DNA of 61,101 bases, filler included, from Basidiobolus ranarum (Eukaryota), in assembly GCA_040143965.1 (NCBI GenBank). It is 4 parts of 4 records of this genome, joined end to end, with 100 filler letters (N's around TTAATTAATTAA, not from the genome) between each part and the next. Parts side by side here need not be neighbours in the genome. Positions count along the whole stretch, not along the records: positions 30,670 to 45,842 come from JASJQH010007265.1; 3 more parts are not named here. One strand, given 5' to 3'. The notes below the pieces were generated by a model. That model had not been told where the DNA came from. It did not search any database and saw only the letters and a program-made list of their open reading frames with translations. Within the stretch, counting starts at the first letter, position 1. Each line of letters begins with the position of its first letter. A program made the position numbers and the translations under genes. This document shows positions 1-49,435 of the stretch, one piece after another.

Positions 1-12
1 CATAGCATATAA

Positions 13-39806: not shown

Positions 39807-41691
<1,885 letters not shown>

Positions 41692-42902: not shown

Positions 42903-44278
42903 ATGATAGGACTAATCCTATTAGCAGTTGGTTGTTACTACTCCTTTACTAGTAAACCTGACCCTGATTCCTTCCGTAAATTTATTGCCGGCGGTGAAAG
43001 TAATGAACCCTCTAGTTCTAAAGGATGGTTTAGTAAAGTTGTTAGTAAATTCCGTAATGTTCCCGAGTTTCAATATCACGACTATTTACTCTTCTCCTAC
43101 GTGAGTCTATCCGATGGTAGTGCCCATTTTCTCGGTTGGGGAAATCGTTGGTGGCTACTTTCCAAATTATTGGATGGTAATTTAAACCCTACTACAGGAG
43201 AAGAGAAGAATTTGGTGAATACGTTGGATCTTGTTGAACTGGAAAAGGAAAAGGCTCATAAAGCTAAATTAAAGAAGAATTGTAAGTTTGCTTTTGCTTT
43301 GATAAATAGAGTTTATTTTCTAAAGTAGTGGTACATTTATAGATATTGAAGCTGCCCAGTTCTTCCTAAAAGCTTCGCAATTTTTAAAAGATCAAAAAGA
43401 TGAGGAGAGTACTTATGAACAAGCTGTATGCCTCGAAGAAGCTTATAAAGCCTTTAAACAGGGGAATCAACTTGGTAAAATATTTAAGAACAAAAGCTAT
43501 GATAATGTCTAGCTAAACCCATTATTATACTAAATAGAGAAAGGATTGAACTACCTTGAACAAGCAGCCAGTAAATTTGGTACCTCGACTCGAAGGGCCA
43601 CTCGTGGCGCTAGGTTGTACGATCAACTTGGTGAGCACTACAACTCTCTTGGTAAACGTAATCAATCGCGCCAAGAACTTGTTAAAGCATGTAAAATGTA
43701 TGAGAAAGCAGCTGAACTTTATGATATGGAAGGGGACAGGTTGGTCATTTGAAAATACTTCCAAATGATCTACAGGATATTAATTATGTGTGAATATTCA
43801 GCCGATCAGTATACTCCATCTCACATCAGGCTGAGTTAGCTAGCGAGCTGGGTCTTTATGAGGAAGCGATACATTCCTACGACAAGGTCATTTCAGTAGC
43901 ATCGGAAGATCGGTTACTCCAATTCAAATTGAAGGACTATTTAGTCTCGGCATGCCTTTGTGTACTAGCAAAAGATGGGTGGGAAGAGTTCACCAGTACC
44001 TTCCATCGCTACCAAGACCTCTATCCGGCATTTAACTCTGCTCGAGAATCGCAGTTATTGAACGTAGGTTTCCTCTCGATAGCATAGATACCTATATGTT
44101 TACTTAACCATACTTTCTTTTTACCGAATAGGATTTGATCCAAGCTAAGAGTGACTTTGATTTGGAAAAGTATGAAACGACACTTGCACGACATATTAAT
44201 TTAACCCCTTTACCCATCTGGCAGTCACATATACTTGACAAAGCCAAGACAGGAATCCAACAGGAGGATTTATGTTAG
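42903..44278 (+). CDS. Alpha-SNAP/Sec17-like protein with an extra N-terminal hydrophobic-anchor domain
   Basis: Exons 42903-43281, 43343-43474, 43538-43739, 43802-44063, 44132-44278 splice in frame. YEKAAELYDMEG, LLQFKLKDYLVSACLC, YQDLYPAFNSARE, W..IL.KAK..IQQEDLC*. Confidence 0.85.
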
Positions 44279-45842: not shown

Positions 45843-45942
45843 NNNNNNNNNNNNNNNNNNNNNNNNNNNNNNNNNNNNNNNNNNNNTTAATTAATTAANN
45901 NNNNNNNNNNNNNNNNNNNNNNNNNNNNNNNNNNNNNNNNNN
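45843..45942. other. Artificial contig linker
   Basis: N44-TTAATTAATTAA-N44. Confidence 0.97.
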
Positions 45943-47968
45943 GTTAGTATGCAATAATCAATTCTCAGGGTTAGCATAGACATTCACTTACTCGAATTTG
46001 CTTGTCTTCTGCTCCGGTAGCCAAGAATTTTCCGTCAGGACTGAAGCATACAGATCTAATGTAAAGATCGCCTTCTCTGTTGGCTGCTTCATCTTGTAAA
46101 ACACTGAGAGACTGTAAGTTATAGTTGACCTCTGTCGATGTACAATAACCACTTTACCAAATCTTATTTCCACTTTGAACGTCGTATATTTGTGCACTTC
46201 TATTACAGCCGGTAGCCAAGTATTTACCATCGTTACTGAATCGAACACAGCAGACAACACTAAACATTCAACTTTAGATGGAATCCAATTAAAAATATCA
46301 ATAGCATTGTATATATAGATTAGTACCTGCTATGATCCAAAGTATGTGCTAGATCGACATTTAACTGGCGAGGGACTCGAGGGTTAAAGCTATTAGAGAA
46401 GATATATATTAGCAGACTGGAATGCGAAAGTTCAGAAAAATCGAAAACTTACATGGCAAACCAATCAGATCCTTCACGCTTAAGTCCAGAAGGAAGATTC
46501 TCAAGATCTACGTCGTTGAAACTGCCACTTGCAGAGCCAGGACCTTTAACGGATGGTACTCTCACCGGACCAGTTACAGATTGCTGCTGCTGAACTGATT
46601 GTTGGGAAGGAAGGCCACTATTGCTCGACTTTCGATTGATACCTTGAGGACTAGTATTAGGATATGGAGAAGCACCTTGAGGAGGACCTTGTTGAGACTC
46701 ATTCTGCATGCCCACAGGTGGTTGAGAAGGGAGTGGTCCTTGCTGGCCCATCTAATCCAATAGTAAAAATTAGTTAGGCAATACGACTACAACAGATATA
46801 CAGAATACTCACCGGAGTATTTTGCGGACCACCTTGCATATAACCTATGTATGTGGTAGAAAACACGCAAACGTGTAAGTTTTATTATATGTAATAAATT
46901 AACGATTATATAAGCTACCCATTGGTGACTGTCCAGGTCCTGGCCCCATCATCCCTGGCATTTGATTAGGTGGTTGGCCTGGCATTGGAGGTGAAGAAGC
47001 AGGAACAGAGCCGTACATAGAAGGTTGTTGCATTGGTGTTTGTGATTGACCTCCCATGTGGTGGGGTGGAGCATCAGAGTCCCCACGAAGTCTTTTATTC
47101 GGAGGCTGATGTCCACCTTGTTGAGGTGGTACCTGTTGTGGAGTGCCAGGAGGGCCACCGCTAGAATAAGCAGCTAAGCCGGGAGGCCCAGACCCAGGGC
47201 CTGGATATCCTGGGTGTTGAGGTTGTGGTTGTTGATTTGGATCCATCATTTGAGGGGGCGCTGCTAATGAATTGGGTCCATTTTGTGCTCCGCTCATGAT
47301 CCCACTAAAAAGATTTGAAGGGCCGTGACCAATATTGGGAGGTGTAGGTTGATGGGCTTGATGGGGTGTACCACCGCTTTGAGGATGAGAGCCGCGGGCC
47401 TCGAGCTCCCGACGAAGTCTTAGTATTTCTTCTTCATATCTTGTGATATATATATATATAAGAATACCACTTCAAAAGATATGGACACTATTATACAGAA
47501 TAGATAATCTCTTACTGTTGTTTAATTTTCTGGTGAGTTCTCTCGAGTTCGTATAGATTCTGCTGGAATCCGGTCATTTCGTTCAGTTGTGCGGAGACTA
47601 AAAATAGTAAAGTTGTTTAATTCTATTCACTCATTCAAATTAAACTTGACAAAGACAGATGAAGTTATCCAAAGCAAGATGTGAGTAATACAACATCTGC
47701 TTTGGAAGAATCGCAAACTACGCGTTTAAATAATATCGGATTATCTTTATAAACGCGTCGCTTCAAACGAAGCTTGAAATGAACTCAGAAGAGATTGAAG
47801 TATCGAAGTAAACTTACTTTTGTGTTCAAACTCGTCACGCTGCATTTTGAACATGGAAACATCTTGGTTCACTTGTTCAAACTCAACCTTTAAAGCATCA
47901 AGAAGCTCAGGAATTCTACTCCCGGCTCCGGCGGGAACCATTGGACGATGATTATAGATGTTTGACAT
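45943..47968 (-). CDS. TUP1: Transcriptional corepressor Tup1, 5' part (3' end off contig)
   Basis: Tup_N ([30 protein letters not shown]), P/Q/G-rich linker, [11 protein letters not shown]40 [20 protein letters not shown] and [26 protein letters not shown]; multiple introns. Confidence 0.96.
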
Positions 47969-49435
47969 CTCGTCGTTGAAGAAATTTACGTAAGCTAACT
48001 GTCAATGGATTTCAAACCTTGAATTTTGCGTCGCAAATTTGAAAGTCTAAGTCAAAAAAAATAGACAGCTTGATTTTTCTTTCAAGGAAGTAAGATAACA
48101 AAGATTAAACAAGCAAGGAGAACTCGGCACAGATATAAAAATATCCCTTTTAATGAATGATTTTTCACTGACCATTAGGCATTAAGGAGGGGGAATTGAT
48201 GACCCTTTAATTTCAGATGAGCTCGTAATATATTAATAGTATTGTTTTTATTCTATCGTGATTCAATATCGAATTTGTATTCTATAGTCAATATAAATAT
48301 CTTCAGCTCCGAGTCAGCGAATTGGTTTTGAAATACTGATACAACGTTGTTTGTCACTCTTATCATTTGACCATATATATTAATTGGTAATCCATTTTAT
48401 GTTGTCTCAAATAGCAGTGATGAAGTTTGTCTTTTAGCCAGTTTCACCAACACAAACCTTCAGTGTTATTACTGATGGTATACTTACTGGACATTTGTAC
48501 CATTCTTTACACAAGTTTCCTTTTCCAGCCTGAAGAGAGTAGATTTGGGAAACGGAACTCAACATAAATATATCACCTACTCTAATCACTAATCCAAATC
48601 ATTGAATTGGTCGACTTGAATTCAAACAACTTCAATCGAGATCTAGATCAAACACTGCAACTGACACTGAGCCAAGTGGATACAATAGCATATAATGACT
48701 AGCGCTCTTGTTCTAATGCATACATACTAATGAGACAGCATTTATTCATATTTGACATGAGATCGCGCGTTTCTTTGTGACCTCAAACATCTTAGTTGCT
48801 GATATTTTATCAAGTACTTTAAGTACGGATTACCGGAAAAAGGTATTGTGAGTGAGCTTATATCTACAAAATGAGCTGTTCACAGGAGTTCATGATGAGC
48901 TCCTTTTTTCTATCGTTATGTTACAAAATGATCCGTCAGTCTCACGCTCAACGATAAAGTAGTTAACTCGGAAATATATGTCTAATTACGACTTTGCTAA
49001 TAACCATGTTGATGGAATATAAATGCTCTTGTGTTGACAGCAAAGCTACGTACTTTACCATCACAATACCTTGTAACGGATATTCTTTCTAGCTAACCAT
49101 GAACCCACTCAATAGTGTGGCAGTTAGAAATATGCTTGAAAGTATTTTGGATCAAGAATGTCAACTCGTAATTCATTTTTTCTTTCCAGTCTGCATGATT
49201 TTCGTTCGCTCAGCCTTTCGATAAGGTAGCTGTACTAGAACACTATACTGCACGCTACATCTTGCGGTTTTCCAAATAAATAATGAATATATGTATCATA
49301 TATAATGGTTACCAGACATGTCGGTCCTAACATGTTTAATGTGAAATTATGTGTACATAAAGAATGAAATACAAGTGACAAAAAACCTGTCACTAGCTTT
49401 CAATTTGAAATTCAAAAAACAGTTTTGCAGAAGAA

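Follow-up and report, generated by a model that had tools for sequence, protein, structure and literature searches.

By definition, soluble NSF attachment proteins (SNAPs) are soluble adaptors; they contact membranes by way of a weak apolar loop, with F27 and F28 as its apolar residues in alpha-SNAP. In Sec17 the loop residues are F21 and M22 (PMC5540461). The same source describes TM-Sec17, in which the transmembrane anchor of Vti1 is placed on the N-terminus of Sec17. The engineered protein stimulates HOPS/SNARE fusion with Sec18 in vitro (Song et al. 2017, PMC5540461), and its anchor renders the apolarity of the Sec17 loop dispensable, but not if the SNAREs are incompletely zippered. A 2025 survey gives one alpha-SNAP as the general case in fungi (PMC12019078). 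Here we describe a gene of the fungus Basidiobolus ranarum, placed by the NCBI taxonomy in the phylum Basidiobolomycota, whose product carries a SNAP domain behind an N-terminal hydrophobic helix. The gene lies at positions 42903-44278 (+) of a stretch of 61,101 nucleotides joined from four records of assembly GCA_040143965.1 (the window), has five exons and encodes 373 amino acids. Its product and related proteins of other early-diverging fungi and of aphelids form a small conserved family in which helix 1 and the loop of alpha-SNAP are replaced by a hydrophobic helix, an alpha/beta domain and a flexible linker. In open-access papers and preprints, supplements aside, no description of such an anchored SNAP was found, which agrees with the sequence-only reading that preceded this analysis and knew of none. 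The architecture is apparently new to the literature; the protein itself is already in NCBI as a hypothetical protein.

The spliced frame of 1122 nt translates, letter for letter, into the NCBI entry 'hypothetical protein K7432_007674' of B. ranarum, labelled P0001 below. P0001 begins MIGLILLAVGCYYSF-TSKPDPDSFRKF... and ends EDLC*; the coordinates and both termini given by the sequence-only reading were correct. What that reading had observed was confirmed as a whole, and its interpretation, a paralogue that exchanged its loop for a signal anchor and a small domain and could hold Sec18 or another AAA ATPase permanently on one organelle, was borne out in part. The four introns, 61-68 nt long and all GT..AG, have a GC content of 0.24-0.34, against 0.37-0.46 in the exons. 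Intron 1 divides the exon that carries the anchor, the N-terminal domain (N-domain) and the first SNAP helix from the remainder of the gene. The exon 1-exon 2 junction reconstitutes the codon of Y127 within KAKLKKN-Y-IEAAQ, a stretch for which the B. meristosporus orthologue has KAKLKRNYVEAAQ and other species have a counterpart.

The greater part of P0001 resembles alpha-SNAP/Sec17. Searched singly, exons 3, 4 and 5 fall in collinear order on the Pfam SNAP profile, at its positions 95-149, 161-239 and 240-282. On the whole protein PF14938 scores 137.1 bits (cut-off 25, E 1.1e-39) over residues 112-368 and profile positions 36-282 of 282. The second-best Pfam family is TPR_MalT with 23 bits, and every TPR family stays under its own cut-off. 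A search of PDB sequences at E <= 0.01 gave eight matches, seven of them alpha-SNAP/Sec17 chains (E about 1e-18; alpha-SNAP 1.3e-18, Sec17 3.5e-18) and the eighth a weakly matching hypothetical protein (E 5.7e-4). An AlphaFold2 model of the full length, built on a nine-sequence family alignment, has a mean pLDDT of 83.9, with values >90 over most of residues 110-370. Its SNAP part is a Sec17-type TPR-like sheet of helical hairpins with a C-terminal helical bundle. The best Foldseek matches of this model are Sec17/alpha-SNAP chains of 20S complexes (E down to 4.2e-12, TMt 0.73-0.79, identity 24-30% in the structural alignments), and generic TPR proteins reach a TMt of at most 0.43. The fold is common to alpha-SNAP/Sec17 (PDB 1QQE, 3J96, 9CRU, 9OJZ) over about 260 residues. 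By profile and by model, the SNAP part is specifically alpha-SNAP/Sec17-like rather than generic TPR, as the sequence-only reading had recognised from the exons.

Two family members, the B. meristosporus orthologue (P0002) and a protein of Ambispora (P0005), carry the UniRef name 'Gamma-soluble NSF attachment protein'. We considered and rejected this identity. Gamma-SNAP (PDB 2IFU) has the overall SNAP fold, and Foldseek aligns it to the model at E 5.1e-7 and TMt 0.71. However, the identity in that alignment is 16%, a profile of the nine family sequences scores 51.6 bits on gamma-SNAP against 152-157 bits on alpha-SNAP/Sec17, and gamma-SNAP is not among the eight PDB sequence matches of P0001 at E <= 0.01. 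Judged by profile scores and modelled structure, the family sorts with alpha-SNAP/Sec17 and the label is unsupported.

The fusion to the N-terminal part is shared by other species. One HMMER pass with exon 1 (126 aa) over 1.84e9 cluster representatives returned 14 proteins at E <= 0.001, the best with E 6.5e-12 and the only one at or below 1e-10; 14 proteins at that threshold in a library of this size argue that the match is not chance. Seven are full-length proteins of 350-463 aa (P0005, P0006, P0008, P0011, P0012, P0014 and P0016), which align from the N-terminus or from an internal Met and have the same build as the window protein; the other seven are short or partial. Homologs of like architecture, which the sequence-only reading had proposed to look for, thus exist. 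PF14938 lies behind the N-domain in five of ten scanned relatives, the remaining five being fragments, and in 8 of 16 sequences of the wider family alignment. The named sources are Ambispora gerdemannii, Jimgerdemannia flammicorona (two entries), Calcarisporiella thermophila, Linnemannia zychae, Olpidium bornovanus (partial), Mortierella sp. (partial), Amoeboaphelidium protococcarum and a second B. ranarum gene, K7432_006248; full-length proteins come from Ambispora, Jimgerdemannia, Calcarisporiella, Linnemannia, Amoeboaphelidium and that second gene. These sources fall in several early-diverging fungal phyla and in the aphelids, a placement that a taxonomy look-up confirms for three of them. 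No Dikarya or Mucorales name occurs among the exon 1 relatives, which in one single-sequence search is not proof of absence.

All full-length members open with a hydrophobic helix followed by Y-K-T-N-P...S-F, and P19, F24, F64, G78 and W83 are invariant in 13 N-domain sequences. Mean pairwise identity among eight full-length proteins is 33% in the N-domain, 28% in the SNAP part and 10% in the linker. The N-domain is, on these alignments, at least as conserved as the SNAP part and appears to be under constraint. Could the fusion nevertheless be an artefact of the gene model, in which the sequence before residue 86 is a chance frame or a misjoined small gene and the true product a soluble SNAP? 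The closest orthologue invites the question: P0002 of B. meristosporus (ORX99984.1, 287 aa, 74% identical) is annotated from the position of residue 86, and is either a truncated gene model or a truly soluble variant. In B. ranarum, however, a CTT codon for Leu stands at residue 86. After residue 1 the next in-frame Met comes only at residue 224, and therefore internal AUG initiation cannot give a soluble form of P0001. The frame runs open and uninterrupted by an intron from the N-domain to the first SNAP helix, the N-domain is constrained, and independent gene models from at least six other named species contain the fusion too. The artefact is largely refuted and very improbable. Exon 1 is best taken as part of a conserved fusion and not as an annotation accident, in keeping with the sequence-only reading, which had spliced it to the SNAP exons.

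Four short database proteins from metagenomes or assemblies (P0003, P0007, P0010 and P0017) stop aligning to exon 1 right after ..K(K/R)(D/N). All but P0003 run on into C-K or C-W, and the window frame read into intron 1 likewise gives KKN-CKF. Because these proteins lose the alignment where read-through into intron 1 would begin, the pattern suggests that a phase-1 intron at the place of window positions 43278-43290 is conserved across species.

Word-indexed protein searches are poor for this divergent family and uninformative about its absence elsewhere. With exon 1, searching the longer proteins, they returned only P0001; with the whole protein, P0001 and the B. meristosporus orthologue. 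A search with the family profile scored 8000 candidates, of which 4 were matches, and failed to recover most of the sequences that belong to the family. The second B. ranarum gene (P0016, K7432_006248, 393 aa) has the same build of anchor, DUF4359-like domain and SNAP domain, and is 31% identical to the window protein.

The distribution of the family bears on whether P0001 is an extra paralogue at all, or whether these fungi instead have their housekeeping Sec17, or one copy of two, in this anchored form. An identity of 24-30% is not far below that between Sec17 and alpha-SNAP themselves, several members are named simply 'soluble NSF attachment protein' in databases, and no canonical Basidiobolus Sec17 turned up in searches that were word-limited and not designed for that question. 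Against this, the family is rare and patchy, with 14 matches in 1.84e9 representatives and none from a named Dikarya or Mucorales; B. ranarum has two divergent copies, one of them without the Leu motif discussed below; and an anchored protein could hardly serve every organelle, as an essential general adaptor must. Blastocladiella, an early-diverging fungus, is also reported to have a separate alpha-SNAP as well as a 'gamma-SNAP' (PMC1550239). On these grounds an anchored housekeeping Sec17 seems quite improbable. The 'gamma-SNAP' expressed sequence tag of Blastocladiella emersonii in that paper could itself be a member of the anchored-SNAP family.

Residues by which alpha-SNAP contacts its partners were traced through HMMER alignments to alpha-SNAP and a nine-row family alignment, and their states are alignment states only (Table 1). 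The roles of the SNARE-face residues in alpha-SNAP are taken from PMC6457932 and PMC12019078. Counterparts of K56, R116, K122, Y200 and K203 are kept in P0001, as is the acidic C-terminus with its penultimate Leu. In Sec17 the double mutation L291A,L292A (LALA) changes the Sec17:Sec18 interaction (PMC5540461, from which the KEKE mutant also comes). By alignment, most but not all determinants of SNARE and Sec18/NSF contact are preserved, which is hard to explain unless the SNAP domain works in the cytosol.

Where alpha-SNAP has helix 1 and its membrane-insertion loop, P0001 differs entirely. Every alignment to alpha-SNAP begins at residue 36-43 of the latter, and in P0001 the sequence before that point is taken up by the linker and a foreign N-domain. 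Neither helix 1 nor the apolar loop is therefore present, as the sequence-only reading had supposed of the loop. The protein opens instead directly with the hydrophobic helix MIGLILLAVGCYYSF, which has a mean Kyte-Doolittle value of 1.96 over residues 1-15 and is modelled by AlphaFold2 as a helix over residues 2-16 (block pLDDT 78-90). A 75-aa domain follows, with the motif order SKP (of the (K)TNP type), SFRKF, a low-complexity loop, VPEF, DYLLFS and FLGWGNRWW; it is modelled as a helix (21-29), a low-confidence loop (32-51), four strands (56-85) and a helix (86-91). Unlike alpha-SNAP/Sec17, which is soluble, the window protein is predicted to be membrane-bound.

The sequence-only reading had remarked on a likeness of this domain to DUF4359 (PF14271), a family of stand-alone bacterial proteins of about 120-140 aa. 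DUF4359 is absent from the Pfam matches of exon 1 at E <= 10 and from the 25 families listed for 16 family sequences, and the N-domain profile has no match among PDB sequences at E <= 10 (HMMER). More sensitive comparison gives a different picture. We assembled 30 DUF4359 loci, with a match in 28 of 81 cyanobacterial genomes searched; one further match without a locus was excluded. When a 13-sequence alignment of the fungal N-domain was compared with these by hhalign, the probability was 86.7% (P 4.3e-6, score 38.1, 92 columns), and the alignment pairs the two helices, the two TNP motifs, DY-x-FS with NY-x-FS, and the closing G-x4-W/F strands. Controls (reversed template, reversed query and 30 column shuffles) gave at most 1.8% and a score of at most 17.1. 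With the hydrophobic helices removed, the match still reached 66.4% and a score of 30.0, against controls of at most 10.5% and 20.7. In an Atlas structure search the nearest clusters to residues 1-105 of P0001 are bacterial and bear DUF4359 (TM 0.57-0.61). Residues 1-95 of the Calcarisporiella member P0008 match DUF4359 clusters at TM 0.66-0.72, one row of which 'meets the bar for a name', and its best feature match is a cluster with an 82% share of DUF4359 (score 0.84). The likeness is upheld by both the alignment and the structures (TM 0.57-0.72 overall), yet no Pfam model reaches threshold, and we regard the N-domain as a remote relative of bacterial DUF4359, not a member.

The elements common to both run in the same order: a hydrophobic helix, T-N-P with an aromatic residue four residues later, a helical stretch, a (N/D)Y-x-hydrophobic-F-S strand and a G-x4-F/W strand. 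The fungal domain differs in its shorter helix (median 15 vs 20 residues) with no basic residue before it, in a low-complexity loop where the cyanobacterial proteins have a helical insert, and in its fusion to a SNAP domain. Nearly all of the cyanobacterial proteins begin MK.. and have a helix of about 20 residues and the TNP motif; conserved Cys pairs in the helical insert of nearly all of them are lacking in the fungal domain. The genomes searched for DUF4359 are a sample of the phylum to which Trichodesmium belongs; two copies occur in three of them. DUF6876, listed by Pfam for the N-domain at E 0.14, was rejected as chance.

A second kinship was raised by the structure searches. Foldseek of the N-domain model against the PDB gave nothing at E <= 0.001; the only match with a TMq >0.3 was chain C of 7cgp, the human TIM22 complex (TMq 0.55, probability 0.60, E 1.7, not significant), which from its length of 223 residues we presume, unconfirmed, to be Tim29. 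The Atlas rows for P0001 include two clusters with a 20-22% share of PF10171 Tim29 (formerly DUF2366), at a feature score of 0.79 that lies within the range of shuffled proteins. Tim29 is a subunit of the TIM22 carrier translocase of Holozoa. Its chain comprises a matrix helix, one transmembrane segment and an intermembrane-space domain that holds the Tim9/10a/10b hexamer (10.1101/869289); PMC7523481 reports no homologues outside Holozoa by HMMER. Both proteins have a single helix followed by a small juxtamembrane domain, which in Tim29 docks a partner. In contrast to the fungal protein, Tim29 has a matrix helix before its transmembrane segment and a chaperone-recruiting tail in place of the SNAP domain, and the fungal N-domain has no significant sequence match or Foldseek E-value to it. 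The N-domain is possibly related to the transmembrane-plus-intermembrane-space module of Tim29.

Short, moderately hydrophobic N-terminal anchors with a following basic residue are typical of signal-anchored proteins of the mitochondrial outer membrane. P0001 might accordingly be a protein of the mitochondrial outer or inner membrane, with a Tim29-like anchor and juxtamembrane domain and a SNAP-shaped TPR scaffold on which chaperones, another AAA ATPase or further non-SNARE partners would dock. The Foldseek and Atlas hits to Tim29 would suit such a protein, and so would the loss of the K163 counterpart. Yet the Foldseek hit is not significant, neither the profile search of the PDB nor the Atlas score lends it more weight, the best named Atlas matches of P0008 are all DUF4359 with none Tim29, and most SNARE-face and Sec18-facing residues are retained. 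We consider a mitochondrial scaffold unlikely.

The sidedness of the anchor can be approached through its flanks. In 15 fungal sequences the hydrophobic run starts at Met1 and spans 11-19 residues (median 15), and just 4 of the 15 pass a Kyte-Doolittle threshold of 1.6 over 19 residues. The cyanobacterial DUF4359 runs span 13-23 residues (median 20) and pass in 22 of 27; three of the 30 proteins, in which the first 'NP' precedes the helix, were left out. A K or R stands within eight residues before the run in 26 of the 27, and by the positive-inside rule the bacterial domain is predicted to lie outside. The fungal proteins have K/R after the helix. Because the basic N-flank is lost and K/R is kept after the helix, they fit the inverted orientation, N-out/C-in, which would put the SNAP domain on the cytosolic side.

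The same run admits another topology. It could be a cleaved signal peptide or a type II anchor, in which case both domains would lie in the secretory lumen or outside the cell and the SNAP fold would be a helical-repeat scaffold unrelated to NSF. A run with a median of 15 residues that starts at Met1 with no charged N-flank is more typical in length of signal peptides than of anchors, and a luminal location would retain the outside position of the related domains, both that predicted for DUF4359 from its basic N-flank and that of the corresponding Tim29 domain in the intermembrane space (10.1101/869289). But the acidic C-terminus with its penultimate Leu is kept (L in six of nine rows), and so are K125, R189, R196, F279 and K282 on the SNARE face, for which there would be no reason in the lumen. 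The helix flows into the conserved Y-K-T-N-P motif, as in the bacterial family, and no consistent small-residue cleavage motif was seen by eye (no predictor was applied). A luminal or secreted P0001 we hold to be unlikely.

Taken together, these comparisons give a slightly better than even chance, by our estimate, that P0001 is a constitutively anchored adaptor of Sec18/NSF. The hydrophobic helix would fix it permanently to a single membrane, so that N-domain and SNAP domain both face the cytosol, and anchor and N-domain would provide at all times the attachment that the apolar loop gives transiently. Owing to the linker, the SNAP domain could lie along SNARE bundles of the same membrane, with its retained face of basic and aromatic residues turned to them, while the acidic C-terminus with its penultimate Leu would recruit and activate Sec18/NSF. 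SNARE disassembly or the promotion of fusion would then be confined to, or favoured on, the organelle of residence, and the N-domain may contribute a localisation signal or a docking site for a partner.

Several observations weigh against such an adaptor. The short run of the fungal helix, below threshold in most sequences, is also compatible with a cleaved signal peptide or an anchor that does not span the membrane. A cytosolic N-domain demands a flip of topology, the homologous domain being non-cytoplasmic in DUF4359 and Tim29. Alpha-SNAP K163 has no basic counterpart in any row of the family, and K167 is only partly conserved (Table 1). The second B. ranarum protein, P0016, ends ..LDGNPA, without the acidic penultimate-Leu motif (it is the row with P at position 372), and may be incapable of activating Sec18. 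The AlphaFold2 model of the N-domain is of moderate confidence (pLDDT 71.7), and no Pfam model matches that domain (exon 1 at E <= 10; 16 family sequences). Finally, the gene model of the B. meristosporus orthologue lacks the first 85 residues and with them anchor and N-domain.

The nearest precedent for an anchored adaptor is the engineered TM-Sec17, also a SNAP with an N-terminal membrane anchor, of which P0001 would be the natural counterpart. The two differ in that TM-Sec17 is artificial and keeps the whole of Sec17, whereas the natural protein is without the loop region and has a folded domain and a linker inserted. TM-Sec17 moreover still requires its loop with incompletely zippered SNAREs (PMC5540461), and the natural protein has none.

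Table 1. Features of the anchored-SNAP gene in the window and of its product P0001, with counterparts of alpha-SNAP residues in the nine-row family alignment
Feature	Window position	Strand	Codons or residue of P0001	Basis or remark
Exon 1	42903-43281	+
Exon 2	43343-43474	+
Exon 3	43538-43739	+
Exon 4	43802-44063	+
Exon 5	44132-44278	+
Intron 1	43282-43342	+		61 nt, GTAAGT..TAG, phase 1
Intron 2	43475-43537	+		63 nt, GTAAAA..TAG; spliced frame matches P0001
Intron 3	43740-43801	+		62 nt, GTTGGT..CAG
Intron 4	44064-44131	+		68 nt, GTAGGT..TAG
N-terminal hydrophobic helix, putative membrane anchor (MIGLILLAVGCYYSFT)	42903-42950	+	1-16	Kyte-Doolittle, AlphaFold2, relatives
Small alpha/beta domain, DUF4359-like	42951-43175	+	17-91 (about 75 aa)	AlphaFold2, hhalign, Atlas
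Linker	43176-43235	+	92-111	Poorly conserved; disordered 92-102, pLDDT <50; runs into first long SNAP helix 100-123
SNAP domain	43236-44260, across introns 1-4	+	112-368	PF14938, PDB matches, Foldseek
E-D-L-C and stop, acidic C-terminus	44264-44278	+	370-373	Putative counterpart of the Sec18/NSF-activating end of alpha-SNAP/Sec17
Alpha-SNAP K56			K125	Basic in 8/9 rows
Alpha-SNAP R116			R189	Basic in 8/9 rows
Alpha-SNAP K122			R196	Basic in 8/9 rows
Alpha-SNAP K163 (Sec17 K159)			Y242	Basic in 0/9 rows; Y/F/A/H/T
Alpha-SNAP K167			H246	Lys in 3/9 rows, His in 3/9 rows
Alpha-SNAP L197			L276	Apolar in 8/9 rows
Alpha-SNAP Y200			F279	Aromatic in 9/9 rows
Alpha-SNAP K203			K282	Basic in 7/9 rows
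Penultimate Leu			L372	L in 6/9 rows, F 1, I 1, P 1

Two genes were seen around the locus, and neither points to a functional link with the anchored-SNAP gene. Upstream, at about 40024-41663 (+), lies a multi-exon protein-kinase gene (Pfam Pkinase E about 5e-17 on two exons) whose motifs look by eye like those of the NDR/Dbf2 type. On the minus strand at about 46449-48001, beyond a run of N at about 45845-45890 in which an open frame reads as a string of X, a gene probably encodes a Tup1-type corepressor: its Tup_N domain (E 2.6e-9) precedes a long stretch rich in Gln and Pro.

The family shows that some fungi exceed the single alpha-SNAP given for fungi in PMC12019078, and it corrects the automatic 'gamma-SNAP' labels of its members. 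The respective shares of mere membrane recruitment and of bilayer perturbation in SNAP action are an open debate that has so far been approached with the artificial TM-Sec17. A natural family that has lost the loop and gained an anchor and a folded domain amounts to an evolutionary experiment on that question, with proteins open to testing because fungi such as Mortierella/Linnemannia, Basidiobolus and Calcarisporiella can be cultured. The family further provides the first eukaryotic functional context for the uncharacterised DUF4359 fold, and a possible bridge to Tim29. One rather unlikely extension is that opisthokonts twice recruited an ancient module of bacterial type, the DUF4359 superfamily: in Holozoa as the transmembrane-plus-intermembrane-space docking module of Tim29 in the TIM22 translocase, and in Holomycota by fusion to an alpha-SNAP, giving a permanently anchored, organelle-resident adaptor of Sec18/NSF. 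If this were true, Tim29 would not be a holozoan invention without relatives, and in these fungi at least one organelle would have a dedicated anchored adaptor in charge of recycling its SNAREs.

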